Source: Planctomycetota bacterium
GTDB lineage: Bacteria > Planctomycetota > UBA8108 > UBA1146
Length of the DNA: 59,876 nucleotides
Assembly (NCBI GenBank): GCA_002711105.1
Contig: PAIH01000024.1
Location: forward strand, 1 to 59,876
Direction of reading: 5' to 3'
This document shows positions 358 to 58,362 of this stretch, one piece after another (positions within the stretch are counted from its first letter, which is position 1; the number at the start of each line of letters is the position of its first letter). The position numbers and the translations under genes were made by a program. The notes under the pieces were generated by a model that saw only the letters and a program-made list of their open reading frames with translations, was not told the origin of the DNA and made no database searches.

Positions 358-1320
358 TCAGCGCGAGCAGAAGCCACGGTGCTTCTGATAATAGTCCTGG
401 TGGTATTCCTCGGCGCGCCAGAAGGTCGGGGCCTGGGTGATGATCTGGGTGCAGAAGTCACGCCCATCGAAGGCATTTTCTTCCTTCATTTGCTGCATCA
501 CCTGCTCGACCTGTTCGGCTTCGTCTGCATCGTTGCAGAAGATCACCGATCGATACTGACTGCCGACATTGGGACCTTGCTGATCGGGGGTAGTCGGATC
601 GTGCAGGGCAAAGAACAGCTGAACCAGATCGCGGTATCGGAGTTGCCGTGGATCGTAGAGCAGTTCCACCACCTCGGCATGACCGGTCTCCCCGGAGCAG
701 ACCTGCTCGTAGGTGGGATTGTCGTGGTGACCTCCCATGTAGCCGGAGACGGCATCGACGACGCCATCGAGGCTCGCAAAGCGATCCTCCACGCCCCAGA
801 ATCAGCCGCCACCGAACCAGGCGCGAGCCAGTTTCGGGTCCGAGTCCCGATCATCCAGTTCGGGAATCTCGCGCGCAATCGCCTGGCCCTCCGGATAGAA
901 ATGCAAGGATGCCGAGTTGAGGCAGTGGCGGGTTCCGGTCGGGGGAGGCCCGTCGGGGAAGGCGTGACCGAGATGGGCATCACAGCGGCCACAGGTGATC
1001 TCGATGCGCACCATGCCATGGCTCTCATCGTGCTTCTGGCAAACGTGCTGCGGGTCGAAGGTGTCGAAGAAGGAGGGCCACCCGGTACCGGAATCGAACT
1101 TGTGTTCGGAGCGAAACAACGGCAGGTGACAGACAACACAGGCGTATACCCCATCAGATTTCTCCGCCAGATTGCCGCCGCAGAAAGGAGCTTCCGTTGC
1201 TGATTTCTGGGTCACCTGGTGCTGCTCTGGAGAAAGACGCCGGGTCAGTTGTTGATGATGCAGCGGTTCCGGAGCCACGAGCGGAAAGCCGCTGGCCGAG
1301 ATTTCAGGTCCGGAAGCCAT
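358..1320 (-). CDS. msrBA: fused methionine sulfoxide reductase MsrB-MsrA. An in-frame TGA (802-804) at the MsrA catalytic position is predicted to encode selenocysteine.
   Basis: Track ORFs 802..1440 and 358..792 share one frame and are separated only by TGA. The N-terminal half carries MsrB motifs ([30 protein letters not shown]). The C-terminal half is MsrA (FWGVEDRF...GYMGG...[18 protein letters not shown]...GSQYRS). The junction reads GGG-TGA-FWGVE, matching the conserved GCFWGVE. The ATG at 1320 (MASGPEIS...) is the preferred start; an upstream ATG at 1440 is also possible. Confidence 0.8.
748..789 (-). promoter_or_regulatory. candidate bacterial SECIS region (two adjacent mRNA hairpins downstream of the UGA)
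   Basis: Hairpin 1 (789..769) is GAGG-A-UCGC-UUU-GCGA-G-CCUC and starts 12 nt after the UGA. Hairpin 2 (768..748) is GAUGGCGUC-GUC-GAUGCCGUC, a 9-bp stem including 2 G-U pairs. Both were folded by eye only. Confidence 0.3.
802..804 (-). other. in-frame UGA codon, predicted Sec codon of MsrA
   Basis: Minus-strand codons read GGT GGC GGC TGA TTC TGG GGC GTG GAG (G G G * F W G V E). The TGA occupies the Cys position of the GCFWG active-site motif. Confidence 0.75.
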
Positions 1321-1417
1321 GGAGTCTTTCCTTTCCAGCTGTTTCAACGAACCACCATCGTACCTCCAACGATGGTACCCTCGGGTCGGGGCGATCCCAA
1401 CCGGAGAATCGCCCACC

Positions 1418-2137
1418 ATGGAGGTATGCTTGGAAGACACCCAACGACCGGAAACACCCGCTCAGGAGCAGATCAGCTGGCAGATATTCCGTGATCGATT
1501 CATCTCTGCGTTGGGTCCATTTGCACCTGGATTCGCACGAGAGCAACTGGCGCGGCACGCCTGGCTGGTGCGTGAGAAAAATCAGGTGATGAATCTGACC
1601 CGGGTCACCGATCCGGAAGCGATGGCGATCCGACACACCGCCGACTCACTGGCCTCCCTGCCGCTACTGGCCGAAGGGGGAGAACAGATTTTCCATCACG
1701 TACTCGACCTCGGAACTGGAGCCGGTTGGCCCGGTCTCTCCATCGCCATCGCCTGCCCCCACCTTCGAGTGACATTGATCGATTCGACGCGCAAGAAGAT
1801 CGATTTTGTGCAATCGGTGGTCGAGGAACTGGAACTGCAAGATCGCGTCACCTGCGTCTGGGGTCGCTTCGAGGAGTGGATCAGAGAACAACGCAAGGAT
1901 ATCGATCTGGTCACCGCCCGCGCTGCCGGACCTGTAGATCGGATCCTCGGCTGGTGCACCAACAGTTACTTCGGACCGATGCTGCTGTGGAAAGGTCCGG
2001 CTGTAGACAAAGAACTGAAGGATGTCGAGGGACTGATGTGGAAACGGCGCCTGTTCGTCGCTCTCGACGAACCGTATCAGATTCCCGGCGATGAGGCGGT
2101 GCGACGACTGATTCTCATCGATCATCTGCGCAGCTAG
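1418..2137 (+). CDS. rsmG: 16S rRNA (guanine527-N7)-methyltransferase RsmG (GidB)
   Basis: [20 protein letters not shown], a SAM-binding motif [17 protein letters not shown], and [11 protein letters not shown]. Start is uncertain: the ATG at 1418 (MEVCLED) is preferred over the ORF-track ATG at 1319, which would abut the msrBA start. Confidence 0.85.
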
Positions 2138-2403
2138 CTGGCGTCGTCATCTCTACGAATAAAATGTGCGCCACGATTTGTAATCCGATCTCGTATCGCC
2201 CCGACGATGGTCGCAGTACCGGAAACGGTTAAAATGGTGGCGAGAATATACTGGATGATGTCAGGCTCGATGAAGATTGCCAGCCCTGCAAGGAGCAGGA
2301 ACGAGCCTATGATCAGTTTGCCTTTGCTTACAATATTGATAGCGCAACCGCTCCCCTCAAGATTTTTCCACGTCAATCTCCAGTGCCAGTCCCATTCCTC
2401 CAC
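2134..2403 (-). CDS. hypothetical small membrane protein (two predicted TM helices)
   Basis: An 89-aa ORF fills the lower-GC gap between the convergent rsmG and thiolase genes. It has hydrophobic stretches IIGSFLLLAGLAIFI and YILATILTVSGTATIVGAI. Its 5' end overlaps the thiolase 3' end by 47 nt. No recognisable homology. Confidence 0.3.
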   Translation of the reverse strand: MEEWDWHWRLTWKNLEGSGCAINIVSKGKLIIGSFLLLAGLAIFIEPDIIQYILATILTVSGTATIVGAIRDRITNRGAHFIRRDDDAS

Positions 2404-3541
2404 TGATGCATAGGGTCGCTAGCCCCTTTCCACCACCTCGACGTCTGAGTTCATGCAAGAGAGTGGTCGTGATGCGTGCCCCGGTCGCTCCGATGGGATG
2501 TCCGAGTGCTATCGCTCCCCCGTTGACGTTGAGACGATCTCGGTCGATGTCGATCTCACGGAGACAGGCCAACACCTGAGCAGCGAACGCCTCGTTCAAC
2601 TCGACCAGATCGTAGTCATCGATGCTGCCACCGGTTTTCTCCAGCAACTTCCCGATGGCAGGAACCGGTCCCATTCCCATCCGCTTCGGTTCGACGCCGG
2701 CGCGCGTCGAAGCACCCAGAGTCGCGAGGATCGGCCAGCCCTCCTCGCGAGCCAGAGACTCATCTGAAATCACTACAGCACAGGATCCATCGGTGATGCC
2801 CGATGAATTGCCGGCATGGATCGAGCCGTCCTTCTTGAAAACCGGTTTCAGTCGACCCATTGCTTCGATGGTGACATCGTTTCTGGGATGTTCGTCGGTC
2901 TCCACCACCGTCGCACCCTTGCGTCCAGCAATCTCGACAGGAGCGATTTCATCGCTGAAAAGACCCGCTTCGCGGGCTCTCTGACAGCGTTGTTGACTTT
3001 CGACGGCGTAGGAATCCTGTTCTTCACGAGTGATGGCAAACTCTTCGGCGAGGTTTTCGGCGGTGGCACCCATCAACTGATCAGCCAACGGACAATGAAA
3101 TCCATCACGGTACATTCCGTCGACCAGTTCTCCCTCGCCCAGGCGATAGCCCTTGCGTGCACCCAGCAGGTAGAAGGGCAATTGCGACATACTCTCGGTA
3201 CCACCGGCAACCATCACCTGCGCATCTCCCCGCTCGATGGCATCGCGGGCTTCGATGATGGACAGGAGTCCAGAGCCACAAGCCATGTTCAGGGTGATGG
3301 CGGTCGAATGTTGCGGCATCCCGGAACGGATGGCGATCTGGCGTGCCACGTTGGGACCACCGCCAGCCTGTCGGCCACAGCCGAAGCGCAGTTCATCGAC
3401 ACGGTCTGCAGAAATTCCGGCAGCTTCCAGCGCTGGCACCACGGCCGCCACTCCCAGATCAGCGGGAGTCAGCGATGAAAGGCCACCGAGGAACTTCCCG
3501 ATAGGAGTGCGCTTCGCCGAACAGATGACCGCTCGACTCAT
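2357..3541 (-). CDS. acetyl-CoA C-acetyltransferase (thiolase II)
   Basis: 394 aa. Contains MSRAVICSAKRTPIGKF, the active-site region LNMACGSGL, NVNGGAIALGHPIGATG and LCISGGMG. Confidence 0.92.
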   Translation of the reverse strand: MSRAVICSAKRTPIGKFLGGLSSLTPADLGVAAVVPALEAAGISADRVDELRFGCGRQAGGGPNVARQIAIRSGMPQHSTAITLNMACGSGLLSIIEARDAIERGDAQVMVAGGTESMSQLPFYLLGARKGYRLGEGELVDGMYRDGFHCPLADQLMGATAENLAEEFAITREEQDSYAVESQQRCQRAREAGLFSDEIAPVEIAGRKGATVVETDEHPRNDVTIEAMGRLKPVFKKDGSIHAGNSSGITDGSCAVVISDESLAREEGWPILATLGASTRAGVEPKRMGMGPVPAIGKLLEKTGGSIDDYDLVELNEAFAAQVLACLREIDIDRDRLNVNGGAIALGHPIGATGARITTTLLHELRRRGGGKGLATLCISGGMGLALEIDVEKS

Positions 3542-4689
3542 GACTGGGCTCCTGTCAGAGATCTCGAAACGAGGATCTTCTGCAGATCCTCACCACCACC
3601 AAAGGGAGCCGAGGATTGCACGTCCCGGTAGGCACGCTCCACCGGATACTCGCGGCTGTAACCATTTCCACCGAGGATTTGAACTGCATTTCTGGTCGTC
3701 TGGTAGGCTGCCTGTTTCGCCGCAAGATTCGCCATCGCAGCCTCTCGGCTCGCCGGCTTGCCACTATCGAAGAGGCTGGCAGCACGCCACAGCATCAAGC
3801 GAGCTCCCTCGATCGCGGTGGCGGACTCGGCCAACATCGCTCGTATCGACCCGAACCGATCGATCGATCGACGAAACGCAATGCGCTGCGACGAGTACCC
3901 CAGAGCCTGGCTGATGGCCCCCCGCGCCACTCCCACTGCAACCGCGGCACTGCCGAGACGAGATTTGTCTACTACCCCCGATATGGCGGACCAACCAGAA
4001 TCTGCTTTTACCAGGCGAGCACCAGCGTCAAGGCGAACCCCGTCGAGTTGAAGATCGCACAAGCCCGCCCCCCTCAGACCGAGCAGATCCTTCATCGGGT
4101 CTCGGGAACAACCATCCGATTCAGGATCGACCACATAGGCACCGAGATCCTGCAGTTGTTCGTCACCACTTCGAGCGACAACGGTGACCAGTCCGGCCAG
4201 GGCTCCTGCCACCAACCAGGTCTTTCTACCGTGCATCGAAAAACCATCTGTTTCTTCACCTACGGCACAGGTGATGCCGGAGGCATCCGATTCCGCTTCG
4301 ACCTCGGCCAGGGCAAAGGTGGCAAGGGTCTCGCCGCTGGCCAGCCCCGGAAGCCAACGCTGGTGGCCTGTCTCGTCGGCGAGATCCAGGATGGCAGCGG
4401 AACCCTCGAACAGGTGTGTCGAAAGCACCGCAGCGGTGGAAGCACAACAGCGGGCTACCTCTTCGACAACCAGACAAGCAGTGAGTAGATCCAGACCTGC
4501 GCCCCCATACTGTTCGGGAATCGTGAGACCCATCATTCCCAGTTCTGCCAGCTCGGCAATGGAATCGGTCGGTAGACCCTGAGACTCATCGAGTTGTTCT
4601 GCTCTCGGTGAGATCTCATTATCCGCAAAATCCGCGATCAGCTCGCGAACTTCCTGGTGATGTTCCTCGAAGCGGATCACGATCAACAC
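3538..4689 (-). CDS. acyl-CoA dehydrogenase family protein
   Basis: 383 aa. Has the C-terminal ACAD signature (QILGGNGYSREYPVERAYRDV) and a 4-nt overlap with the thiolase start. Confidence 0.85.
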   Translation of the reverse strand: MLIVIRFEEHHQEVRELIADFADNEISPRAEQLDESQGLPTDSIAELAELGMMGLTIPEQYGGAGLDLLTACLVVEEVARCCASTAAVLSTHLFEGSAAILDLADETGHQRWLPGLASGETLATFALAEVEAESDASGITCAVGEETDGFSMHGRKTWLVAGALAGLVTVVARSGDEQLQDLGAYVVDPESDGCSRDPMKDLLGLRGAGLCDLQLDGVRLDAGARLVKADSGWSAISGVVDKSRLGSAAVAVGVARGAISQALGYSSQRIAFRRSIDRFGSIRAMLAESATAIEGARLMLWRAASLFDSGKPASREAAMANLAAKQAAYQTTRNAVQILGGNGYSREYPVERAYRDVQSSAPFGGGEDLQKILVSRSLTGAQS

Positions 4690-4736
4690 CTTCCGTTCAT
4701 ACTAACTCGAAGCCTGCCAATGCTGCTGCGACAGCA

Positions 4737-5684
4737 TCATCGGGATATCCCCTCATCGTGGGGGCCTGTGAGCAGGGTATCCAGTGCCTCTCTGACGGTC
4801 ATCTCTCCTCGTACCACGCTGCTCGCCAGCTCCTCCATCCGCGCACAACCACCGGCAGCATCGAGACCTTGTCTCAGCCACACCTGCTCGGCTCTCCTGC
4901 GGATGCGACGAAGGATCCTGGCTTGAATTCGTGCCGGGTCAGGGGATCCTCGATGGAGCTGAGCCAGCTTGAGAAGTTCCTCTGCCACGGTATCGACACC
5001 GGTTCCGTCGTGACTGCTGACTGCGATGGGATCTGCTGTTTCTTGATCGCGCGCCGCCTCCTGGGACCACCGCATCAGTTCATCCGCTCCGGGGCGATCA
5101 AATTTATGCACGATGATACGGTCGACGATTTCCAAAACCCCTGCCTTGAGTAATTGAATCGCATCGCCCGATTCAGGGCTGAGTAGCAACCATGCCTGGT
5201 CTGTTTCCTGCCCAACCTCGACCTCGAGTTGACCGACGCCCACTGTTTCGATGATGATGATGCCAAATCCAGCGCGGGCAAGGATCTCGGCGGCAAGGTC
5301 GGTGCAGCCGGCGACACCACTGGTCGACCCACGGCTGGCGATGCTGCGAAACCAAGCTCCCTCTCCGAGGTCACCGGATAGCCGTACTCGGTCTCCTAGT
5401 AGTGCACCACCCGAGAGCGGGCTGGTAGGATCGATGGCCAGCACCGCAACACGCTCTCCCCTGTTGAGAAGTTTCGGAACCAACTGGGAGATAAGAGTGG
5501 ACTTCCCGACCCCAGGGGCTCCGGTCAAACCGATCCGAAAACTATTCGAAGACCCGGGAAGGCCCGCCAACAAATCGTCGGCAGCGGACTCGTCCTCCTC
5601 GACCGCCGTGATGGCACGCCCCAGATGGCGTCTTGACCCCTGCAGGATTCCGGCAACCAGTTCTTCGAGGTCGAAAGCTGGCAA
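4737..5684 (-). CDS. meaB: methylmalonyl-CoA mutase-associated GTPase MeaB/ArgK (G3E family)
   Basis: P-loop GLTGAPGVGKSTLISQL, then [20 protein letters not shown] and IIIETVGVGQ, followed by the (H/N)KxD-type HKFD motif. Confidence 0.88.
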   Translation of the reverse strand: MPAFDLEELVAGILQGSRRHLGRAITAVEEDESAADDLLAGLPGSSNSFRIGLTGAPGVGKSTLISQLVPKLLNRGERVAVLAIDPTSPLSGGALLGDRVRLSGDLGEGAWFRSIASRGSTSGVAGCTDLAAEILARAGFGIIIIETVGVGQLEVEVGQETDQAWLLLSPESGDAIQLLKAGVLEIVDRIIVHKFDRPGADELMRWSQEAARDQETADPIAVSSHDGTGVDTVAEELLKLAQLHRGSPDPARIQARILRRIRRRAEQVWLRQGLDAAGGCARMEELASSVVRGEMTVREALDTLLTGPHDEGISR

Positions 5685-5686
5685 GC

Positions 5687-6886
5687 TTACCCCCGCACCG
5701 GTCGAACATGCCTGGCGATGACGAGCCTCTGAATCTGACTGGTTCCCTCATAGATCTCGGTAATCTTCGCATCGCGGAAGAGCCTCTCGACCGAGCTCTG
5801 CCGTCCAATCCCCATTCCACCGTGCACCTCCAGTGCCATCCGGGCCGCATCGTTGGCGATCTCAGCAGCACTCAACTTCGCCATCGATGCCTCCTTCGAG
5901 TGTGGCAAGCCAAGATCTTTCAGAATCGCGGCTTTCCGCGTCATCAAGCGAGCTCCTTCGAGTCGAGTCGCCATCTCCGCAATCTTGTGAGAGACCAGCT
6001 GGTTGTCGGCGAGTTTCCGTCCGAACATCTGGTGGCTCTCGGAAAAATTGATGGTCTCGTCGAGACAGGCCTGGGCGATCCCATTTGCCTGTGTTGCGAT
6101 TCCGATCCGTCCTCCATCGAGGGTATGCATGGCGACCTTGAAGCCGTGGCCTTCCTCGCCGAGCAAGTTCTGGGCAGGAACTCGCAACTCGTCAAAGATC
6201 AGTTGCACCGTATCAGAACCGCGGATCCCCAGTTTCTTCTCTTTCTTACCGACTGAAAACCCAGGCATCGACTTCTCAATCACGAATGCATTGATCCCGC
6301 CCGCTCGCAGAGAAGGGTCCATCGTCGCGAAGGTCACGATGACATCCGCATAAGATCCATTGGTGATCCAGGCTTTGGTGCCGTTGAGTATCCACTCATC
6401 CCCTTCGCGACGACAGGTGGTCTCGATCGCCGCAGCATCAGAACCATGATCTGGTTCTGTGATGGCGTAGGCCCCCAGAATTTCGCCACTAGCAAGACTC
6501 GGAAAGTAGCGAGCATGTTGTTCTTCGGAACCAAAATGTAGCAGCGGGCTTGAGAAGAGCGAGTTGTGAACCGAAAGCGTCACGCCGGTAGAGGCGCAGC
6601 CTCGGTTGATCTCTTCCAGCGCCACCGAAAGAGCGAGATTGCCGAGTCCAAACCCTCCGAACTTGGAGGGAGCCAGGATGCCCATGAAACCCAGCTTGGC
6701 GAGTCGCGCCATGTTCTGGGCGGGATAGCTCTCCTCGCGGTCATGGCGATCTGCCGCGGGAATCAGTACCTCATTGGCAAATTCATGAGCGATTTCCTGC
6801 AATTCCCGATGCTTCTCAGGCAGAGAAGTCCCGAGCATCGCGCCCAGAAGACCTTCGAAATCCTCGCTCATGCTCTCTTCGAGCAT
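5687..6886 (-). CDS. acyl-CoA dehydrogenase (short-chain/butyryl-CoA dehydrogenase-like)
   Basis: 399 aa. Contains GAYAITEPDHGSDAA, WITNG, the FAD/ACAD signature QVHGGMG and IYEGTSQIQRLVIAR. Confidence 0.9.
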   Translation of the reverse strand: MLEESMSEDFEGLLGAMLGTSLPEKHRELQEIAHEFANEVLIPAADRHDREESYPAQNMARLAKLGFMGILAPSKFGGFGLGNLALSVALEEINRGCASTGVTLSVHNSLFSSPLLHFGSEEQHARYFPSLASGEILGAYAITEPDHGSDAAAIETTCRREGDEWILNGTKAWITNGSYADVIVTFATMDPSLRAGGINAFVIEKSMPGFSVGKKEKKLGIRGSDTVQLIFDELRVPAQNLLGEEGHGFKVAMHTLDGGRIGIATQANGIAQACLDETINFSESHQMFGRKLADNQLVSHKIAEMATRLEGARLMTRKAAILKDLGLPHSKEASMAKLSAAEIANDAARMALEVHGGMGIGRQSSVERLFRDAKITEIYEGTSQIQRLVIARHVRPVRG

Positions 6887-6902
6887 CTATCACTCCTTCT
6901 CG

Positions 6903-7793
6903 TCAGGAATAATCGTAGAAACCGCGGCCACTCTTCCTGCCCAGGTCTCCGGCCGCCACCATCTTTCGCAGCAACGGACAGGGGCGATATTTCGGATCTC
7001 CCAGCTCGTCTTGTAACACCTCTAGAATGGTGAGACAGACATCGAGACCGATGAAATCAGCCAGGGCCAGTGGCCCCATCGGATGCCCCATTCCCAGCTT
7101 CATCACTTCGTCGATCGACTCACGAGTCGCGACACCCTCCATCAATGCATAGAAGGCCTCGTTGAGCATTGGGGCGAGAATCCGGTTAGCCACGAAACCA
7201 GGATAATCTGCCACTTCCCACGGCTCCTTACCCAGTCGACGGGCAAGCTCGAGCGTGGCGGCAACTACATTGTCGGAAGTACGATGCCCACGGATCACCT
7301 CGACCAACTTCATCATCGGAACCGGGTTCATGAAGTGCATCCCGACGAAGGCCTCTGGTCGCGAGGTAAAGTTCGCAAGCCTCGTGATGGAGATGGACGA
7401 TGTGTTGCTGGCAATCACTCCATTGTCTGCGACCTGCTGATCAAGAGCACTGAGCACCTTCTCCTTCAGACTCTCATCTTCCGGCACCGCCTCAACTGCC
7501 CACTGCACTCCGGCAGCAGCTTCAGGACTGGTCTCGAAGGAAATTCTACCCAGGGCAGATTCTGCATCGGCGGAGGCGATCTTTTCCTTCTTCACCATCC
7601 GACCGAGACTGTTCTCGATGAAGCCACGAGCGCGTTCCAGGGCTTGATCGACCGGGTCGATGACGACCACTTCATAGCTGGACTGTGCGAAGACCTGGGC
7701 GATCCCGTTCCCCATGGTCCCGGCACCAACAACAGCGACGCGTTGTATCGAATCGACCAGAGCTCTCGCCTCTTCAGAAACTGGGTCTGACAT
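6903..7793 (-). CDS. hbd: 3-hydroxybutyryl-CoA dehydrogenase
   Basis: Rossmann motif [15 protein letters not shown], then [24 protein letters not shown], and [13 protein letters not shown] at the C-terminus. Confidence 0.92.
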
Positions 7794-12808: not shown

Positions 12809-13804
12809 ATGATCAAGGTGAGAGATCTCAGAAAGGTGTTCCGGGTCCACCAGAAGGAAGCAGGGCTGGCGGCATCCGTCCGATCTCTCTTCCATCGTAA
12901 ATGGGTCGAAAAGGACGCGGTCACCGGGTCGACATTCGATGTCAAGGAAGGGGAAATTGTCGGCCTCATCGGTGCCAACGGAGCGGGGAAAACCACGCTG
13001 GTGAAGATGCTCTCGGGAATCATCCACCCCACCTCTGGAGAAGCAGAGGTTCTCGGTTACGTACCGTGGGAACGTGACAATGACTTTCGCAGACAGATCG
13101 CCCTCGTCATGGGACAGAAAGCACAGATGTGGTGGGATCTTCCCGGCGGGGATTGCTTCGAGTTACTGCGGGAGATCTATCAGATTCCTCGTGATCAATA
13201 TCAGCAATCCTTGAAAAAACTCACCGAAATGCTGGGGATCGGCGACGAGTTGAAGGTCCAGATCAGACGCCTGTCTCTCGGCGAACGAATGAAGATGGAA
13301 CTGATCGCGGCACTGCTCCATTCACCCCGTGTTGTCTATCTCGATGAACCGACCATCGGTCTCGACATCACCACCCAGAGAGCGGTGCGAGATTTCCTTC
13401 TGGACTACCGCCGAGAAAATGCTCCAGCAATGATTCTGACCAGTCACTACATGGAAGATATCGAGAGGCTCTGTGAACGAATCATCATCATCCGCGAAGG
13501 AGACATCGTTTACGACGGCAGCCTTGAGCGAGTAATGCGCGAATATGCTCCCTACAAACAACTTCGACTACATGTTCATCGCACTGCCCAACAGCAACCG
13601 GAACTGGAACTCCTGGAGAAGATGGGGCAAGTCATCGAATGTGAACCTGGCTCGATATGTCTCCGTGTAGACAGGGACAAGATTCCAGAGGTGGCAGCTG
13701 AGTTACTGAGAAAATACTCGGTGATCGATCTCTCCATCGAGGATCCGGAAATCGGAGATACCATCGAGAGAATCATGGCGGGAAGAATGGCAGATTCAGA
13801 ATGA
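12809..13804 (+). CDS. ABC transporter ATP-binding protein (partner of ABC-2 type permeases)
   Basis: Start at ATG 12809 (MIKVRDLRKVF) with GGAGAGGGA upstream. Walker A GANGAGKTT, signature LSLGERMK and Walker B VVYLDEPT are present. The C-terminal extension is typical of the uncharacterised ABC ATPases found with two ABC-2 permeases. Confidence 0.9.
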   Translation: MIKVRDLRKVFRVHQKEAGLAASVRSLFHRKWVEKDAVTGSTFDVKEGEIVGLIGANGAGKTTLVKMLSGIIHPTSGEAEVLGYVPWERDNDFRRQIALVMGQKAQMWWDLPGGDCFELLREIYQIPRDQYQQSLKKLTEMLGIGDELKVQIRRLSLGERMKMELIAALLHSPRVVYLDEPTIGLDITTQRAVRDFLLDYRRENAPAMILTSHYMEDIERLCERIIIIREGDIVYDGSLERVMREYAPYKQLRLHVHRTAQQQPELELLEKMGQVIECEPGSICLRVDRDKIPEVAAELLRKYSVIDLSIEDPEIGDTIERIMAGRMADSE

Positions 13805-14613
13805 GCCTTTCCCTCTTCTTTCACATCGTGGATCTCGAGACCAAGAAACTGATGAGCTATCGGGTCGATTTCTGGATCACGATGGTGGTCAATCTGGTCG
13901 TGAATCTGGTCATCCTGTGGGCGCTCTGGACCGCCATCTTCGCCGAGTCCGGCTCGGAGATCATCGGCGGCTGGGATCTTCCGGGAATCCTCTCCTATGG
14001 AGTGATGGTATTCCTGACCGGACGCATCGTCCGGGGTGGCGATCTTCAGATGACCGTGGCTACTGACATCTACGAGGGCGCACTCAGTCGGTTCCTCCTC
14101 TACCCCCGTCACTATGCCTTCACAAAGTATGCCCAGCAGGTCGGGAACGTCGTGCCAGATCTGTTCCAGTCGGTTCTGATGGGTCTGGTGGCACTGCCGC
14201 TGCTGGGGCTCTCGACCACAACACCCATCACCCCACTGACCGTCGCGATGTCGATCCCGACGATCCTGGTGGCGCATCTGCTTTTTTTTCTGATGGGATT
14301 GATCCCGCAGTATATCGCTTTCTGGGCCGACAACGTCTGGAGCCTGTCGGTGATGGTCCGCTTCGTGACGATGTTACTGGGAGGAGCGATGCTCCCTCTT
14401 TCATTATTCCCTGATTCAGTTCAGCAAATTCTCCACTGGCTTCCGTTTGCTTACCTGTTCGAGTTCCCGACGCTGGTCATCCTGGGAAAGGTAGATTTCT
14501 CGCAGTGGCTCACTGGCATCGGAACTTGCCTGCTGTGGTGCCTCGCCCTCGGCGTCTTATCGATTCCAGTCTGGCGAAGAGGCGACCTGCGCTACACGGG
14601 AGTAGGCATCTGA
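13801..14613 (+). CDS. ABC-2 family transporter permease
   Basis: ATGA start/stop overlap with the ATPase gene. 270 aa, polytopic and hydrophobic (about 6 TM helices). Confidence 0.8.
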   Translation: MSLSLFFHIVDLETKKLMSYRVDFWITMVVNLVVNLVILWALWTAIFAESGSEIIGGWDLPGILSYGVMVFLTGRIVRGGDLQMTVATDIYEGALSRFLLYPRHYAFTKYAQQVGNVVPDLFQSVLMGLVALPLLGLSTTTPITPLTVAMSIPTILVAHLLFFLMGLIPQYIAFWADNVWSLSVMVRFVTMLLGGAMLPLSLFPDSVQQILHWLPFAYLFEFPTLVILGKVDFSQWLTGIGTCLLWCLALGVLSIPVWRRGDLRYTGVGI

Positions 14614-15401
14614 TGATGAGATACGCACGACTCTATCTCCAGTTTCTGAAGTTCTCATTCAGCCGGGCCCTCGAGTACCGAATGGATTTCTGGTTCCGCA
14701 TCGTCATGGACTGCTTGTTTTACGCCGTAGAGCTGGTCTTCTTCACGATTCTCTACCAGCACACCAACATGATCGGCGGCTGGGACTACGATCAGGTACT
14801 GATCTTTGTCTCGGGATACCTGGTCATCGACGCCATTCACATGACCGTCTTCAGTAACAACATGTGGTGGCTACCGATCTACGTGAACAAGGGCGATCTC
14901 GACTACTACATCGTGAGACCGGTTTCCTCGCTGTTTTTTCTCAGTCTGCGAGACTTCGCGGCAAACTCGTTTTTAAATCTACTCATCGCGGGGGGGATAC
15001 TGGCCTGGTCGATCCTGCGCTACCCAGGCGAACTGGGTACAGAAAATCTGATCTGGTTCCTGTTTTTGATGCTCAATGGCAGTTTTATTTTTTATGTCCT
15101 GCAGATGCTCTTTCAGATCCCGGTGTTCTGGACCCACACCAACCGCGGTCTGTTGACCGCCTTCTTCTCGGCCAACAAATTGATGGAACGCCCTGACAAA
15201 ATCTATTCCAAATGGACGCGCAGAATTTTGATGACGGTCTTCCCGGCATTACTGGTCATCGCCCTACCCGCCAGGGTCCTCTTCGATGGTCCCGACCCGC
15301 TACTGATTACTCACATTCTCGGGGTCACCACCATCGCATTCCTCGGCATGCGCGCGTTCTGGAACCTGGGATTGCGCAGCTATTCGAGTGCATCTTCCTG
15401 A
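14613..15401 (+). CDS. ABC-2 family transporter permease (second subunit)
   Basis: In-frame ATG at 14613 overlaps the upstream TGA (MMRYARLYLQFLKFSFSRALEYRMDFW). Polytopic membrane protein. Confidence 0.8.
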   Translation: MMRYARLYLQFLKFSFSRALEYRMDFWFRIVMDCLFYAVELVFFTILYQHTNMIGGWDYDQVLIFVSGYLVIDAIHMTVFSNNMWWLPIYVNKGDLDYYIVRPVSSLFFLSLRDFAANSFLNLLIAGGILAWSILRYPGELGTENLIWFLFLMLNGSFIFYVLQMLFQIPVFWTHTNRGLLTAFFSANKLMERPDKIYSKWTRRILMTVFPALLVIALPARVLFDGPDPLLITHILGVTTIAFLGMRAFWNLGLRSYSSASS

Positions 15402-19127: not shown

Positions 19128-20498
19128 ATGACGCTCGATGTTTCCAACCCCTTTGATGGGTCGCTGGTCTGTTCTCTTGACCATGACAGTGATTCTGATG
19201 TCCAGTACAAGTTACAAGCCGCATATCAATCGCAGCGCATCTGGCGGCAACTCTCAATCGAGAAAAGGATCTCCATCGTCGAACAGGGATTGAGCAACTT
19301 TCGGAACCGGGCGCAGGAGATCGCCACCGAAGTCTCTCTCCAGATGGGGAAACCGATCAGCGAGGCTCGTAATGAAATCGGGACCGTCTTTGATCGAGCT
19401 CATTACATGATCTCGATCGCCAGGGAATCACTGGCTGCCGAGGTATTGCCGGAAAAGGACGGGTTTCATCGCAGGATCGAACACCAACCTCTTGGAGTGG
19501 TTCTCAATCTGGCGGCCTGGAACTATCCCCTCATCATTCCCATCAACGTGGTCGTCCCCGCTCTGGTGGCCGGAAATACAGTACTGATCAAGCACAGCGC
19601 ACGGACTCCTCTGTCGGGAAAAGCTTACGAACAGGCCTTCGATAACCTGGAGATCCCGGGCCTGGTGACAAACCTGATCCTGGGCCACGACCAGACCGCC
19701 AAACTGATCTCAGACAAGAGAATCGCCCATGTCGCCTTCACCGGTTCTGTAGCAGGAGGGGCTGCCGTGCACAATGAAGCATCGAAACGCTTCATCGACT
19801 GTGGACTGGAACTGGGCGGGAACGATCCGGCATACATCGCTGAAGACGCTGATCTTCCCTTTGCCAGCGAAAACGTGGTCGAGGGAGCCTGTTACAATGC
19901 CGGGCAATCGTGCTGTGCGGTGGAAAGAGTATATGTCCATCATTCCCAACTGGACGAATTCGTCTCGGCATCACTCGAGGCGATGGCCGCTCTACAGATG
20001 GGAAATCCACTCGATGATTCGACCACACTCGGCCCCCTGGTCGGATCGAAGGCGCTCGATCAACTGGAAGCACAGGTCCAGGATGCCCTACAGCGAGGAG
20101 CCACCGTGGTCTGTGGCGGAAAACGCGTTCCAGGCGAAAAGGGAAATTTCTTTCCCCCGACCCTGATCGTGGGTGCCCCCAACGATTCGCTCGTGATGCA
20201 GGAGGAGAGTTTCGGACCAATCCTACCGATACTCTCGGTCGACACCGATGAAGAAGCTCTCGAGCGGATGAACGACAACCGCTATGGCCTGACCGCTTCG
20301 GTATGGACACGCGATCAGGAAAGAGCAGAACACTTTGCCCAGCATCTGGAAACCGGCACCGTTTTCCAGAATCGATGTGACTACCTGGATCCCGCACTAC
20401 CCTGGACCGGAGTCGGCGACAGCGGCAAGGGATCGACTCTGTCACGCCACGGCTACTTCCACCTCACACGCCGAAAAGCGATCCACTTTCGACTCTGA
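19128..20498 (+). CDS. NAD-dependent aldehyde dehydrogenase family protein
   Basis: 456 aa. Contains FTGSVAGG, ELGGNDP, the catalytic-Cys region NAGQSCCAVERVYV, and QEESFGPILP. Confidence 0.9.
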   Translation: MTLDVSNPFDGSLVCSLDHDSDSDVQYKLQAAYQSQRIWRQLSIEKRISIVEQGLSNFRNRAQEIATEVSLQMGKPISEARNEIGTVFDRAHYMISIARESLAAEVLPEKDGFHRRIEHQPLGVVLNLAAWNYPLIIPINVVVPALVAGNTVLIKHSARTPLSGKAYEQAFDNLEIPGLVTNLILGHDQTAKLISDKRIAHVAFTGSVAGGAAVHNEASKRFIDCGLELGGNDPAYIAEDADLPFASENVVEGACYNAGQSCCAVERVYVHHSQLDEFVSASLEAMAALQMGNPLDDSTTLGPLVGSKALDQLEAQVQDALQRGATVVCGGKRVPGEKGNFFPPTLIVGAPNDSLVMQEESFGPILPILSVDTDEEALERMNDNRYGLTASVWTRDQERAEHFAQHLETGTVFQNRCDYLDPALPWTGVGDSGKGSTLSRHGYFHLTRRKAIHFRL

Positions 20499-26393: not shown

Positions 26394-29300
26394 TCACATG
26401 TTCCGACGATACCGTCCGCCGACCCCGTAAAGAGAACGGGTAATCTGACCAAGACTCGCTACTCGTACGGTGTCGATCAACTCTCGGAATATGTTCCCGC
26501 CCGAGAGCGCCACTTTTTGAAGACTGGCCAGAGCAGCTTCAGTTTCGCCCTCGTGAGATTGTTGAAACTGCTGCAAATCGACAATACGTTGGTTCTTCTC
26601 CTCTGTGGTGGATCGACGTAGTTCAACTTCCTGCGGTTTTCCGAAGTCTCTGTCGGAACGAAGGAAAGTATTGATCCCGATGATCGGAATCTCTCCGGTG
26701 TGTTTACGATGTTCATACAGAAGCGATTCCTCCTGAATCTTGGAACGCTGGTATTGCCTCTCCATCGCTCCCAGGACTCCTCCTCGATCATTGAGTCTAC
26801 GGAATTCTTCCAGCACAGCTTCCTCTACAAGCTGGGTCAGTTCATCGATGATAAAGGAACCCTGGATGGGGTTGTCATTGCGTGCAAGTCCTAGTTCTTC
26901 GGCAACGATGAGCTGGATGGCCATCGCGCGGCGAACCGAATCCTCGGTCGGGGTGGTGATCGCCTCATCGTAGGAATTCGTATGCAAGGAGTTGCACTGA
27001 TCGTAGTAGGCCATCAGGGCCTGCAAAGTGGTTCGGATATCATTGAAATCGATCTCCATTGAATGGAGGGATCTACCAGATGTCTGACTGTGGTACTTCA
27101 GCTTCTGGCTGCGCTCATTGGCCCCGTAGACGTCTCGCATCGCAACAGCCCAGATCCGACGAGCGACCCTTCCCAGAACAGCGTACTCCGCATCCAATCC
27201 ATTGGAGAAAAAGAAGGATAGGTTTCTGGCGAAACTATCGATCGACATTCCCCGTGACAGATAATATTCGACGTAAGTGAATCCATTGGAGAGCGTGAAA
27301 GCCAGCTGGGTGATGGGATTAGCACCGGCCTCGGCGATGTGGTAACCGCTGATGGAAACCGAGTAGTAATTCCTTACCTGCTCCTCGATGAAGAATTGCT
27401 GGATATCACCCATCATCCTGAGGGCGAAATCAATTCCAAAAATGCAGGTGTTCTGCGCCTGATCCTCCTTGAGGATATCAGCCTGGACGGTTCCCCTGAC
27501 ATTCTGGAACACGTGCATGAATATTTTTTCCTGCTGTTCCGGCCCAGGTTCGGTTCCATTCTCAGCGCGAAATTTTTCCACCTGCTGATCGAAAGCTGTA
27601 TTGAAATACATCGCAAGAATGATGGGTGCTGGCCCATTGATCGTCATCGACACCGAGGTACTCGGAGAACAGAGATCGAATCCGTCATACAGTTTCTTCA
27701 TGTCATCCAGGCAGCAAATGCTGACCCCGCTCTCTCCGACCTTTCCATAGATGTCAGGGCGGCGGTCAGGGTCGTCGCCGTACAGGGTCACGGAATCAAA
27801 AGCTGTTGAAAGCCGATGACTTTTCTCGTTCTCGCACAGGTAATGGAACCGGGCGTTGGTCTTCTCGGGTGGACCCTCACCGGCAAACATCCGCTTGGGA
27901 CGTTCGTCTTGTCTCCGAAACGGAAACACTCCTGCAGTGAAGGGGAATCTGCCAGGCAAGTTCTCTAGCATCAGCCAGCGAACCAGATCTCCCTGGCCCT
28001 GGAACTGCGGAAGGGCAACTCTGGAAAGTCGTGTTCCCGATAAGGTTTCGACCTGCAAGGGCTCGCGGATCTCACGATCTCGAATCTTGAAAACCAACTG
28101 GTCCTTGGTGTAGGCACTGACCACCTTCGGCCATTCATCGATCAAGCTCTTGATACGGGGATCCATCGATCCCGCAATTGTCTGTGCCATCTCTTCCATC
28201 CGGGCCGAGGCATCAGGAAGCTCGGCTTTCAGAAGCTCGGCACTCCGTTGAAGCGCTTCAACATCATGAGCGGCACGACCAGACTCTTTGGCGGAGTCAT
28301 GGTAGCCATGAACTGCCTTGATGATCTGCAACAGGTAACCGGTCCGATCAGCTGGAATGATCGAGTAGGAAGATCCCTTGCTGGAAACACGGTCCTCATC
28401 GATCTTCCAGCGGTCCTCTTCAGGCCCCGAAAGTCGGTTCAACAAGAACTGATAGAATTGCTCGACTCCTGAATCATTGAAGTGACTGGCAATGGTTCCA
28501 AACACAGGAAGATCGTCATCTGAAATATCCGGATCAAAAATCCCATGACTCCGTCGATACTGTTTCCGAACATCACGAATGGCATCTTTCGCTCCGGCAC
28601 GGTCAAATTTATTGAGAACCACGATGTCAGCGAAATCGATCATGTCGATCTTCTCGAGTTGTGTCGCAGCACCGTACTCGGGAGTCATCACGTAAATGGA
28701 CAGGTCAGCGAGTTCTGTAACCCTGCTGTCTCCCTGGCCGATTCCCGAGGTCTCAAGGATGACCAGATCGAATTGATCTCCCAAAATTTGCTGAATGGCA
28801 CCCTGGATCGCCGAAGGTACCTCGACACCACTCGACCGCGTCGCGAGAGAACGTACATACGCACGTGGATTGTCGGCGCTGTTGATCCGAATGCGATCAC
28901 CTAGAAGCGCACCTCCTGTACGCCGTTTCGTTGGATCGACACTGATGATCGCGAAACGACGGTCCGGAAAATCATGGAGCAATCGCCGAAGAATCTCATC
29001 GGTCAGGGAGGACTTCCCCGCTCCTCCGGTACCTGTAAATCCAAGCACGGGAACCTTGACTTCGGCATCGGGGAATTCTTCTCCCAGTTCTACACGGGTG
29101 ATTCGCTGCGGCAGTTTGTTTCCGCGATCCAGAGTACCGTTGATGGACCCAACTCGATCCAGCATGTCACGGATCATCCCCTCGAGTCCGAGTTCGCGTC
29201 CATCTTCGGGCGAATAGATTCGATCGATCCCGTAACTATGGAGTTCCGAGATCTCCTCGGGGACGATCACTCCTCCACCACCACCGAAAATTTTAATCCA

Positions 29301-29552
29301 GGTAGCTCCCTTCTCGACGAGAAGGTCTCGCATGTATTTAAAAAATTCGTTGTGGCCACCCTGATATGAGGAAACGGCAATCGCATCTGCATCTTCTTGA
29401 ATCGCCGTATCGATGATCTCCTCGGCACTACGGTTGTGCCCGAGATGAATCACCTCCGCACCTTGATCCTGAAGAACACGACGGATGATGTTGATGGAGG
29501 CATCATGGCCATCAAAAAGGCTCGCTGCAGTGACGAACCGTACCGGTCGCAT
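26394..29552 (-). CDS. icmF: fused isobutyryl-CoA mutase IcmF (B12-binding domain + MeaI-type GTPase + mutase catalytic domain)
   Basis: 1052 aa. N-terminal B12 domain ([13 protein letters not shown]...[12 protein letters not shown]), central G3E P-loop [13 protein letters not shown] with [19 protein letters not shown], and a C-terminal acyl-CoA mutase barrel (...[23 protein letters not shown]). Confidence 0.9.
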
Positions 29553-29728: not shown

Positions 29729-31225
29729 TCAGGTACTGGTTCGCTCTTCGTGTCTTGATCCGTTGTAGCCGAAGATTTTGGTCTTTCCGTCGATGAAGGT
29801 CTCCAGATGAACCGGACGACCCCAAATCTTCTCCAGATTCTCAAGAACTCTACGGGCATAGTCCATCCGCAATGGAATACCGGACCAATCGTGCTTCAGA
29901 AGCAACTCGCTCCTGTTGCCATAATTTCCACTCTCTACAAAAATTCTTGGTCGACCATAGTTCGACAGCTGATCGAGAAGTTGACTCTTGATCTCCGGAA
30001 AGCCCCTGCTATCGAGGACGTACTGCCCCTGCTGTCGGTCAAACTTGTACGTGAACATCTTGTGCTGCTGACAGAAACTTTCGGTCAGGAACTCATCGAT
30101 AAAAGTGATGTCGTTATGGGTTCTACGAACTTCAAAGATCTTATCCATTCCTTGTTCTTCAGCTTCATTCCATTCGTTTCGGCCATGGGAGTCCTGGCAG
30201 GATTCCCATTCGGAACCATGCTGCCCCGAATCCCAGCGGCGATGAATATCCCTGAATAGTTCGATGCCTAACTTGTACGGATTCAGCATCCCAGGACTAG
30301 AACCCAACGTACCGGAATGGTGATCGGCATAATCAATCAACTCAGAAGCATCCATGATTTTTCTGGTCATCATCCTTGAGTGCCAGAAAGATGCCCAACC
30401 TTCGTTCATGATCTTGGTCATTCCCTGGGGCGCGAAGTAGTAGGATTCTTCACGGATGATGGAAAGAACATCTCTTTGCCAGCTCTGCAACTGACCGTGG
30501 TGGAGAAGGAACTGAAGTACATCCCTCTGAGGTTCGGCAGGAAACTGATCAATGTCTTCGATACGGTTGAGAATCTCTTTTTTCTCCTCAGCGATCATTT
30601 CCGGTGAATTCACAAACTCATCCATGTAGGGCTTGCCCGGGAATCGGGCGCCCTGAACATTGGGGCCTCCCTCATCCAGGTCGTCTTTACTCTTCCTCTG
30701 GTCCTTGGAGAAATATGGAGAGTACGTATCGATGAGATTTTCAACTGAAAGACAGATGTCGATGAATTCTTCGACCACTTCCAGGCCTTGGGCATCGATG
30801 TGACGACGAACCCGAACAGCATGATTCGAAATGGTGTCGACCATCTTTCGATTGGTGTGCGAATACCAGCAGTTGTTCTTGAAGAAGTCGCTATGACCGT
30901 AGACATGGGCCATCACTAGTTTCTGATCTACCAATGGATTGCTACGCATCAGGTATGCGTAACATGGGTCGTTGTTGATCACGAGCTCATAAATTTTCGC
31001 CAACCCATAGGAATATTGCTTCTGCAGTCCTTCAAACTGCATACCCCAACGCCAGTGGGGGTATCGATTCGGAAATCCTCCATAGGCAGCAATCATGTTC
31101 ATCTCGTCATAATCGACGAGTTCATAAATCACTTCGAAGAAGTCCAGAGAAGCATCCAGGGCGTGCTGGCGGATGATCCCTCTCCACTCTTCTATTTCCG
31201 GAGTAAGTAAACGACTCTGCAACAT
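29729..31225 (-). CDS. SpoVR family protein (YcgB-like)
   Basis: 498 aa. Contains FPNRYPHWRWGMQFE, AYLMRSNPLVDQKLVMAHVYGHSDFFKNN, and MNEGWASFWH. Third gene of the prkA-yeaH-spoVR trio. Confidence 0.9.
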   Translation of the reverse strand: MLQSRLLTPEIEEWRGIIRQHALDASLDFFEVIYELVDYDEMNMIAAYGGFPNRYPHWRWGMQFEGLQKQYSYGLAKIYELVINNDPCYAYLMRSNPLVDQKLVMAHVYGHSDFFKNNCWYSHTNRKMVDTISNHAVRVRRHIDAQGLEVVEEFIDICLSVENLIDTYSPYFSKDQRKSKDDLDEGGPNVQGARFPGKPYMDEFVNSPEMIAEEKKEILNRIEDIDQFPAEPQRDVLQFLLHHGQLQSWQRDVLSIIREESYYFAPQGMTKIMNEGWASFWHSRMMTRKIMDASELIDYADHHSGTLGSSPGMLNPYKLGIELFRDIHRRWDSGQHGSEWESCQDSHGRNEWNEAEEQGMDKIFEVRRTHNDITFIDEFLTESFCQQHKMFTYKFDRQQGQYVLDSRGFPEIKSQLLDQLSNYGRPRIFVESGNYGNRSELLLKHDWSGIPLRMDYARRVLENLEKIWGRPVHLETFIDGKTKIFGYNGSRHEERTST

Positions 31226-31226
31226 G

Positions 31227-32327
31227 TCAGCACCCTTTACCCAAGAACGTCTTTATCGATGGAAGAATTTCCTCCCGAGAATTGATTTCTGAGAGAATCA
31301 CCTTCTCTTCAGACCCATAGGCTTCTCGGAGATCCTTGATGAACTGCCCACTTCCATAAGCGCTCTTGACCTGGCCGTAGCAGAAAACGTTACTGCAAGG
31401 AATGAGCGTGTCTTTCAAGAGGTTCAGGCACTGAGCAGTATCGTCACCTCCCCAGTTGTCACCATCGGAGAAGTGGAACGGGTAAATGTTCCACTCGGAT
31501 GGCGAGAACTCCTTCAGAATCAGCTCCTTCGCCAGGTTGTAGGCGCTGGATATCTTCGTGCCACCTGATTCACGAACATGGAAGAAAGTGTGCGAATCGA
31601 CCAATTTCGCCTGAGCGTCGTGAATGATGTATCTGGTTTCCAGGTTCTGGTACTGACTTTTCAGCCAGGTGTCGATCCAAAAGGACTCGATCCTGACGAT
31701 GTCCTTCTGTTCATTTCCCATCGACCCCGAGACATCCATCATGTAGATGATCACCGCGTTCGACTGAGGTAGTGATTTGGTTTTCCAGGATCGATACCTC
31801 CGATCATCTCGCACAGGTATCACTCGCGGATTCTCTTTGTCATAAGTCCCCGATGAGATCTGTCTGCGGAGAGCGTTCTTGAAGGTACGCCTGAAGTGTC
31901 GCAGAGATTCTGGGCCGGTTCGATTGACTCCCGTATAGCGTTGCTTCTCGACGTGAATCGACTCGTTACCACGGGGTTCTATTCGAGGTAGCTCCAGCTC
32001 CTCACCAAGAATTTCCGCCAGCTCCTCGATGGTGACATCCACCTCGATCACGTGTTCTCCCGGCTGATCTCCCGCTTCCGGCCCAGGGGGAGCCTGTTCG
32101 CCACCGAGTGGCTTGCCTTCTTCGCCTTCTCCCTGGCCCACGCCACCTTGTTCGGTTTGCCCGAACCTGAAGTCTGGGATATCGATCTGCGGCAGCGGTA
32201 CGCTGACAATGTTCTTACCGTGACGGGCCAGAATTTCACCCTGTGAAACATATTGCTTCAGATTCTCACGAATTTTGCCGCGTACGATCTTTCGGAATCG
32301 ATTGGCATCAGGATCGATCTTGCGCAC
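31227..32327 (-). CDS. YeaH/YhbH family protein (DUF444)
   Basis: 366 aa. A VWA-like C-terminus ([11 protein letters not shown]) and an acidic Gly-rich N-terminal region. Lies 1 nt upstream of spoVR. Confidence 0.88.
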
Positions 32328-32346
32328 GACTTGGACCTTCCGATGC

Positions 32347-34395
32347 TTATTCCGAGCCCTTTAAATCGCCACGCGCAAAAATGCTCGCAACGTAATTCAG
32401 CACATCAGTGGCACTATCCTCGTTGTATCCGTATTGCTCGATGAGGCGTGCCTTCACCACATCAATCTTGGCTTGTGAATCCCTGTCCACGACATCCGAG
32501 ACCAGCGAAGTCAGTTTGATCGTGTCTTTCTTGTCCTCAAACAGTTTCATCTCAAGCGCCTTCTGAAGACGAGCATTTGTCGTGTAATCAAACTGCTTGT
32601 TGTCCACAGCCAGCGCCCCGATGTAGTTCATGATCTCCCTGCGGAAGTCATCCTTCCTGCTCTCGGGAATTTCAATCTTATCCTCGATGGCACGAAGCAA
32701 TCGTTCATCCGGGTCCTCAAACTGGCCCGTGTAGGGATTACGTACCTTCTCACGCTGAGTGTATGCCTTGACGTTATCGATGTAGTTAGAACACAACTTC
32801 TGAATCGCTTCCTCGTCAGCACTGATGGCTCGCTGGACCTCGTTCTTGACGATGTCCTCGTATTCGGCCTTGACCACTGACAACAACTCACGGTACTGCG
32901 ATCGGATTTCTTCACTCGAGATCAAGCTGTGGTTCTTGAGCCCCTCATCGATTTCGTTGAGTACCATGAATGGATTCACGTAGTTGTAATCGGAAACCAA
33001 CGCGTTGGAGATCTTGTCCTGGATGTAGCGCGGAGAGATCCCTTCCAATCCTTCACGTACCGATTCATCTCTGAGTTCCTTGACGTTCTCCTCGGTAAAC
33101 CCGGACAGGTTCTTCCCGTCGTAGAGTCTCATCTTCTGGGCAATCGAAATCTGAGCATTTTTGGGTTCTTCGAGACGAGTCAAGACCGCCCACATCGCGC
33201 AAACTTCCAGAGTGTGCGGCGCAATGTGTTTGGTCATCGAGTCTCTGCAGTAGTCCTTGCGGTAGATCCGCACCTCATCTTGCAGAGTCGTGTTGTAAGG
33301 GATGTCGATTTTCATGGTCCGATCGCGAAAAGCTTCCATCAACTCGTTGTTCTGGAGTTTTCTGTATTCCGGCTCGTTGGTGTGGCCGATTATCACCTCG
33401 TCGATACAGGTCTGAGCAAACCGTTTCGGCTTGATACGATGTTCCTGGCTCGCTCCGAGCAGGTCATACAGGAACGCTACATCCAGTTTGAGAACCTCAA
33501 TGAACTCGATGATTCCACGGTTTGCGACGTTAAATTCCCCGTCAAAATTGAAAGCTCGCGGATCTGATTCCGAACCGTATTCAGCAATTTTGCGGTAATT
33601 GATATCACCGGTTAGCTCGGTCGAATCCTGATTCTTCTCATCTTTGGGCTGGAAGGTACCGATACCGATGCGATCTTCCTCGTTCATGATGAGGCGACGG
33701 ACCCTCACATGATTCATCACCTTGTGCCAATCCCCATCGTATTTCTGCATGTAGTGGTTGTAGTACCAGCGACTGAAGGGACAGAGACTTCCTGTAAAAC
33801 TAAGCGGGTAATTTGCTTTTCCCGTAGATTGGATGTTCGCAAGCAATTCCGGACGCGATTCATCTGGAACGAGATACAGCGGATCTTCATTCATCGGGGA
33901 ATTGACCCAGTCTCCATTCTCGTCCTCCCACTGGAAGGTGTAGAGAATCCCTTCGGGAGTTCTTGAATATCTCTCCAGACCTTTTTTCAGCAACTGGACA
34001 ATGGTGCTCTTCGCTGATCCAACCGGTCCGTGCAGCAAAAGAACACGCCTCTCGGTGCCGAGACCATGGGCCGCTGATTTGAAGAAACTGACCAGTTGAT
34101 GGAGAGGTTGATCGAGTCCGAAGACTGCGTTCTTGCCCCCCTGTTCGGGATCATCGAAGAAGTTCCAGTGGACACAATCGCGAGAGTTCAACTGGCCCGA
34201 CGATTCGCTTCCCTGAGAAACAATCATGTCATGAACACGTTGGAATGCAGTCCGAAGGACAGCCGGATTCTCGTAAGCAATTTGTAGATAATCGTTGAAA
34301 CTACCGGTCCAGTTCAGTTCCCGGTATCGTTCCGTTTCAAGGTTCTTCGAAATCAGCTCGAAGAGATTGATGTGCTCATTCATTCGGTCCTCCAC
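32347..34395 (-). CDS. prkA: PrkA family serine protein kinase (YeaG-like AAA+/kinase)
   Basis: 682 aa. Walker [14 protein letters not shown], then [26 protein letters not shown], and HTNEPEY. Confidence 0.92.
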
Positions 34396-40242: not shown

Positions 40243-40311
40243 GTTGCTGGAACCTACCTTTCTGTTCTCTTGCACCTTCGACCCAGAATATCAGCAGTGC
40301 AGGACAGATCT

Positions 40312-58211: not shown

Positions 58212-58362
58212 CGGAACTCTCTTTCCTTCGCACAGGTTCGCCCGTGGGAAGATCTTCATCGGGCCTATCCGTACCAAAACGACTGTTACAGAACTCAAGA
58301 TGAAGTGCGGCCAACGACCACCCATCTAGTATACCCCGAATCTTTGCAGGATGTATCGAGCA

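Follow-up and report, generated by a model that had tools for sequence, protein, structure and literature searches.

Does the TGA codon that divides a methionine sulfoxide reductase (Msr) locus in a planctomycete separate two genes, or is it decoded as selenocysteine (Sec) inside a single one? The locus, msrBA, lies near the left end of contig PAIH01000024.1 (Planctomycetota bacterium, UBA1146; assembly GCA_002711105.1), and the window is the whole 59,876-nucleotide stretch of that contig analysed here. The sequence evidence makes it highly probable that msrBA is one gene for a predicted bifunctional protein, MsrB at the amino terminus and MsrA at the carboxy terminus, with Sec as the MsrA nucleophile.

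A TGA codon at the MsrA nucleophile position

Two minus-strand open reading frames (ORFs), 802..1440 and 358..792, share a single frame, and the only stop between them is a TGA at 804-802 ('tca' on the plus strand). Translation across this codon confirmed the arrangement, which had been claimed, with no strand given, in an earlier first-pass annotation of the sequence. The same annotation regarded the Met start of the downstream ORF as an artefact, and this was also correct: the apparent start is GTG 792-790, which is three codons past the TGA and encodes the Val of FWGVE. With the UGA read, the msrBA product has 320 residues and a mass of ~35.9 kDa, and the UGA is codon 173. The ATG at 1320-1318 is likely the true start because the 172-aa product of the gene callers begins there. 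The parts of the gene are as follows.

358..1320, minus strand: complete msrBA gene, with its likely start ATG at 1320-1318, an in-frame UGA at 804-802 and the true stop TGA at 360-358
802..804, minus strand: predicted selenocysteine, UGA codon 173, at the MsrA nucleophile position by alignment (G-G-G-U-F-W-G-V-E)
895..1236, minus strand: MsrB (SelR) domain, residues 29-142 (PF01641, E 5e-46)
376..822, minus strand: MsrA (PMSR) domain, residues 167-315 (PF01625, E 4e-57, profile positions 2-148)
367..369, minus strand: codon of Cys318 (HRGFCSR-stop), the predicted resolving Cys, which aligns with Cys198 of E. coli MsrA and its bovine equivalent

Pfam and NCBIfam searches of the msrBA product were run with U replaced by C and read-through assumed. 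The first-pass annotation had proposed translation with U and profile alignment as a check; SelR and PMSR were both matched, the latter across the TGA. The PMSR match begins at profile position 2, which is residue 167, and therefore the MsrA domain spans the TGA. The frame thus reads as an N-terminal SelR domain with a catalytic Cys and zinc-binding CxxC pairs, then a C-terminal PMSR domain. The product scores 343.1 bits against NF004042, the NCBIfam equivalog for bifunctional MsrB/A, and passes its cutoff of 330. Codon 173 aligns with Cys51, the catalytic nucleophile of E. coli MsrA (1ff3), which bears out the earlier placement of the TGA exactly at the MsrA catalytic Cys. Downstream, msrBA (minus strand, stop 360-358) and cstA (plus strand, stop 353-355) are convergent with 2 nt between their stop codons, and a search of 200-1600 found no terminator-like site.

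Conservation of the codon and constraint on the RNA beyond it

Relatives were collected by a tblastn scan of reference genomes (GTDB species representatives) that was unbiased by the query as to TGA. The nine closest species-representative metagenome-assembled genomes (MAGs), mostly labelled Planctomycetota and including UBA1146, encode products with 66-81% amino acid identity, and all nine have TGA at the exact codon. The same scan returned 70 more distant homologous loci with TGC or TGT at this codon. Position 173 is thus occupied by a Sec/Cys pair, TGA in close relatives and a Cys codon in distant homologues. Look-ups that used the truncated products, and so are biased towards TGA, recovered the split locus from at least 20 marine contigs of independent assembly, with Tara Oceans samples and the NCBI MAG GCA_036338775.1 (JAYZBP01) among the sources. 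Other assemblies with the gene are JAYZTT01, DCAA01 (UBA1146), CAWLAN01, JBBWWC01, JBBWWE01, JAYZBV01, CAYPPQ01, CBFIET01 and QNYK01. In 10/10 clade sequences the TGA is followed by 147 ungapped codons ending in HRGFCS(R/S/H), with neither frameshifts nor further stops. The dN/dS ratio downstream of the UGA is 0.07-0.20 at dS values from 0.4 to ~2, each measured against the window sequence.

Two observations concern the records themselves. A MAG labelled 'Bacillota bacterium' (locus L008, QNYK01000064.1) carries an msrBA 70% identical to that of the window with the same TGA and the same hairpins as described below, and it is identical to locus L091 over the UGA-proximal 99 nt compared; the record is probably mislabelled or mis-binned. 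Locus L142 (GCA_036338775.1, JAYZBP010000046.1) and loci L143-L145 have an identical 172-aa MsrB half and a different downstream neighbour, a same-strand FG-GAP repeat protein in place of convergent cstA. The locus therefore lies at a rearrangement point between close strains.

A bacterial selenocysteine insertion sequence (SECIS) should lie within the coding region, directly 3' of the UGA. The entropy of third codon positions across the clade is 0.25-0.33 over the first ~15 codons past the UGA, against ~1.0 elsewhere. A second test considered only positions at which 11 clade members have the same amino acid. In the 18-codon stretch that follows the UGA, 46% of these positions use a single codon throughout; the corresponding shares are 6% for the remainder of MsrA and 0% for MsrB (Mann-Whitney p ~2e-5). 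Synonymous freezing at positions where the amino acid is already invariant indicates constraint at the level of the nucleotide sequence rather than of the protein. Two hairpins are predicted in this segment by RNAalifold.

769..789, minus strand: hairpin 1, 8 bp with one internal mismatch and a UUU/UUC loop, beginning 12 nt after the UGA
749..767, minus strand: hairpin 2, 8 bp with a GUC/GUU loop, adjoining hairpin 1

Hairpin 1 has the sequence GAGGAUCGC-UUU-GCGAGCCUC and covers the frozen codons for R, A, L and E. Standard pairs occupy 176/176 cells across both hairpins in the 11 sequences; slid partners pair in 25-55%. The alignment contains a U-A to C-G double change in hairpin 1 (columns 27/37, 4 sequences) and a C-G to U-A double change in hairpin 2 (columns 45/61, 5 sequences), together with several G-C to G-U changes in hairpin 2. 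The observed covariation score was higher than that of any of 500 shuffles. Position makes hairpin 1 the best SECIS candidate, and hairpin 2 could be a second part of the element or an alternative SelB-binding loop. The other clades with Sec-containing MsrA have different hairpins in the same region; reviews describe bacterial SECIS elements as heterogeneous.

Weighing the readings of codon 173

The selenoprotein reading, which the first-pass annotation had put forward, is supported by the conserved TGA, the Sec/Cys pair, purifying selection, RNA constraint 3' of the codon and an unchanged genetic code. The evidence for the last point comes from the rest of the window, where TGA is the main stop codon and terminates 28 of 43 long ORFs. 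Genes ending in TGA include those for a thiolase (2357) and an aldehyde dehydrogenase (20496-20498) as well as cstA (353-355), and no other window gene was found to contain an in-frame TGA. TGA is a normal stop elsewhere, and therefore the recoding is specific to codon 173, as had been proposed. The other TGA-bridged frames in the window were all alternative frames of longer genes; an apparent triple-segment frame at 13725-15401, for example, overlies a normal ABC-2 permease gene (13801-14613) in another frame. A TGA-bridged frame common to the related loci L002 and L005 proved to be the antisense frame of a membrane-protein gene running off the end of the locus.

Several results weigh against Sec insertion or against the hairpins as its signal. 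The covariation signal consists of two variable pairs in 11 sequences that are related to one another and from which the scored structure was itself derived. A fold of the single sequence has no stability advantage over shuffles (z = -0.45). Rfam returned no SECIS-type match, either in the whole window at the gathering threshold or in 300-1500 at E≤10; two snoRNA matches are attributed to chance. Hairpin 1 has the spacing of a bacterial SECIS with a UUU loop that lacks the G/U of the well-studied SelB-binding loops, and hairpin 2 has a GU loop and lies farther from the UGA than usual. ARAGORN detected no tRNA-Sec in the 60-kb window or in the flanks of 33 related loci, and Pfam detected no SelA, SelB or SelD among 31 window ORFs; these absences are uninformative for selA, selB, selD and tRNA-Sec, as the searched sequence is 60 kb plus short flanks of a several-megabase genome. 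Full gene sets for Sec insertion are present in several Planctomycetes (PMC4807772).

The best-surviving alternative is read-through that places a standard amino acid at the UGA, by near-cognate Cys or Trp insertion or by a lineage-specific suppressor tRNA. Such a reading would be in line with the lack of Sec machinery in the searched window and flanks, Cys insertion would still give an active enzyme, and a conserved 3' structure could also stimulate readthrough. It is nevertheless improbable. As shown above, most long ORFs end in TGA and no other window gene was found to contain it in frame, and a redox-active Cys position with a Sec/Cys pair among homologues is the hallmark of Sec. Sec-containing MsrA is experimentally established elsewhere, and if Cys were wanted TGC would be simpler and would not have given way to TGA in at least 10 species. 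The residue inserted at codon 173 is thus very probably Sec.

A division into two separate genes, an msrB ending at the TGA and an msrA-like gene starting at GTG 792 without its catalytic residue, is what every gene caller produces, and a GGAGG motif lies nearby. The motif is downstream of the GTG and so cannot be its ribosome-binding site. Located inside hairpin 1, the GGAGG was also considered as a ribosome-binding site for re-initiation and rejected because no in-frame start codon follows it. The MsrA domain starts six residues upstream of the TGA, and ARAWFGGG and FWG on either side of the codon are conserved as MsrA sequence in all relatives, yet a two-gene division excludes them from msrA. 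An MsrA without its nucleophile would be inactive, yet the downstream segment is under strong purifying selection. There is very little room for the two-gene interpretation.

In a single sequence an in-frame stop at codon 173 would resemble a nonsense mutation in a decaying Cys-type msrBA. The same TGA and purifying selection across the relatives form a pattern that neither a pseudogene nor a sequencing error can yield. The first-pass annotation had named a pseudogenised locus in close relatives as evidence that would count against a selenoprotein; instead the frames are intact, the TGA is kept in at least 10 species at dS up to ~2, and dN/dS remains at 0.07-0.20 with no frameshift or extra stop, so the pseudogene explanation is practically refuted. 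A misread TGC or TGT has nothing in its favour beyond the prior probability of such errors, and is refuted: at least 20 contigs, assembled independently in different projects, have the identical codon, as do nine other species.

Predicted chemistry, relatives and significance

With Sec insertion as the favored interpretation, translation of msrBA may proceed as follows. When the ribosome reaches UGA 173, mRNA structure in the next ~55 nt would recruit SelB·GTP·Sec-tRNA(Sec), and Sec would be inserted at the UGA instead of termination. The recruiting structure would be hairpin 1, hairpin 2 or both. The sequences themselves show the gene anatomy, the conserved UGA, selection on either side of it and the RNA-level constraint; the identity of the residue as Sec, binding by SelB, the choice of hairpin and the reductant are inferred. 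Sec173 would attack methionine-S-sulfoxide to form a selenenic acid, and Cys318 would resolve it to a Sec173-Cys318 selenenylsulfide that thioredoxin or a similar reductant would presumably then reduce. Cys318 is kept in 10/10 clade sequences compared. The chain ends two residues after it, and the E. coli MsrA alignment gives no equivalent of Cys206. The enzyme would work as a 2-Cys MsrA in which selenium is the nucleophile.

The MsrB half has the catalytic Cys133 (RHCLNS, codon TGC), zinc-site CxxC motifs at C61/C64 and C110/C113, and a candidate recycling residue, Cys47, in EAPFCGG. This domain would reduce the R-epimer in the ordinary way through Cys133 and the zinc site, probably with recycling by Cys47. 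Its best structural relative is X. campestris MsrB (3hcj/3hci); residues 10-150 of the product align with the whole 3hcj chain (E 2.6e-52). The two share EAPFCG, in which the recycling Cys lies, and both read GTGWPSF where CGWPSF is usual; the X. campestris protein is standalone whereas the window MsrB is fused. The UGA follows a complete MsrB domain of this fold and a linker, which raises the tentative and rather doubtful idea that the gene is a selenium-dependent switch between two products. If Sec insertion failed or selenium were scarce, translation would stop at the UGA and yield an 18.8-kDa standalone MsrB; with selenium available, the product would be the 35.9-kDa bifunctional MsrB-(Sec)MsrA.

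The reference point for Sec-containing MsrA in bacteria is the enzyme of Clostridium (Alkaliphilus) oremlandii OhILAs (CoMsrA), an experimentally verified selenoprotein in which Sec gives ~20-fold more activity than Cys (PMC4479559, PMC13188914). It comes from a strict anaerobe and is a standalone 1-Cys type without a resolving Cys, has an extra C-terminal helical domain, and is regenerated by glutaredoxin and not by thioredoxin (PMC4479559, PMC13188914). The window protein shares the UGA at the MsrA nucleophile in a G-U-F-W-G motif. Unlike CoMsrA, its MsrA is fused behind MsrB, keeps the resolving Cys equivalent to Cys198 and has no extra domain. It is not a 1-Cys-type Sec-MsrA, given that Cys318 aligns with Cys198 and the chain stops two residues later, and it is nearer to the classical E. 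coli and bovine MsrA (E ~1e-34) than to the CoMsrA chains 4w8c and 4u66 (E ~1e-20).

Among fused enzymes, the Cys-type MsrB/A proteins of NF004042, which are common in Planctomycetota, have the same domain order (MsrB then MsrA) and length as the window protein. Unlike it, they have a Cys codon (TGC or TGT) at the MsrA active site, their frames contain no internal stop, and a SECIS is presumably absent. This Cys type also supplies the closest full-length homologues in the database, at ≤55% identity. The MsrAB fusions of S. pneumoniae (3e0m), H. pylori (7e43) and T. denticola (5fa9) likewise hold both catalytic domains in one polypeptide; unlike the window protein they have the reverse order, with MsrA N-terminal, and are all Cys. 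The Sec-MsrA family, with its GUFWG/H motif, occurs in algae too. It was counted nine times in the Global Ocean Sampling (GOS) survey (PMC2398784) and predicted in Syntrophobacter fumaroxidans (PMC1794560), in both cases computationally; the GOS sequences are marine, as is the window gene. Both reports list the family, and no mention of an MsrB fusion or of Planctomycetota was found in them. The literature search also found no description of a Sec-containing MsrB-MsrA fusion and no mention of UBA1146. The literature agrees with the earlier statement that Sec-MsrA is known but uncommon: the family is already established, and the fused, 2-Cys-type architecture has not been explicitly described before.

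A metagenome scan with the DNA pattern GG-TGA-FWGV(E/D) located Sec-type MsrB-MsrA fusions in other clades (L086; L093/L107/L122/L137; L114; L132) and standalone Sec-MsrAs with N-terminal hydrophobic leaders (L089, the L096 group, L101 and L130). In a rough neighbour-joining tree without bootstrap, the Sec clade of the window forms one group nested among Cys-type fusions and the other Sec fusions fall elsewhere. These separate placements suggest repeated, apparently independent Cys/Sec switches in MsrB-MsrA fusions. The recurrence of the MsrB-first layout in at least three other Sec clades would be consistent with a layout that tolerates or even favours Sec acquisition.

The standalone GG-TGA-FWGVE sites are at L089:4158-4180, L096:2083-2105, L101:3429-3451 and L130:6361-6383, with others in L116, L120, L126 and L133. 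The in-frame sequence upstream resembles a signal peptide or membrane anchor, e.g. ALGALIGLLLLSPYVAVAAQP, so that some metagenomic selenoprotein MsrAs may be exported or periplasmic. A further ~33 metagenome loci owe their pattern match to a short recurring sequence, translated as GGWYG(CWYGG)*FWGVDIDPFSGCASVVVVA, and have no MsrA context. Examples are L090, L092, L094, L095, L097-L100, L102-L105, L108, L109, L111-L113, L115, L117-L119, L121, L123-L125, L127, L131, L134-L136 and L139-L141. Found chiefly in ERZ77xxxx and BNJU assemblies, this sequence is a widespread repeat or small gene of some kind.

Other genes of the window include an IcmF-like fused mutase, a 1052-aa minus-strand ORF (26394-29552) that unites domains for B12 binding, MeaB GTPase and methylmalonyl-CoA mutase. 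MeaB is also encoded by a gene of its own (4737-5684), inside an acyl-CoA dehydrogenase/thiolase cluster (2357-7793). A minus-strand cluster at 29729-34395 encodes the PrkA kinase, DUF444 and SpoVR proteins, a conserved stress-associated trio. The minus-strand ORFs 38974-40275 (433 aa) and 57792-58325 (177 aa) have no Pfam match at E≤1e-3, and an exact-protein look-up returned no exact match on record for the product of the ORF at the right end of the window.

The value of the finding is practical more than conceptual, in that it fixes a systematic mis-annotation. Routine annotation had been expected to split the locus, and every public gene call examined for the clade does so, giving a 172-aa "MsrB" and a 144-aa "MsrA" without its nucleophile. 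Among the matches in a collection of 5.8 billion proteins there is no full-length entry for the clade, and the best full-length match is 55% identical. Inventories of the selenoproteome and of oxidative-stress proteins in marine Planctomycetota will therefore be wrong at msrBA. The predicted enzyme would add to the known Sec-MsrAs a 2-Cys-type form fused to MsrB, from Planctomycetota that live mostly in the deep or open ocean. The clade with its Cys-type homologues offers a natural Sec/Cys series, containing several apparently independent switches, in which to ask what selects for Sec in MsrA. If the truncated MsrB does function, msrBA would be a simple natural case of selenium-dependent product choice.

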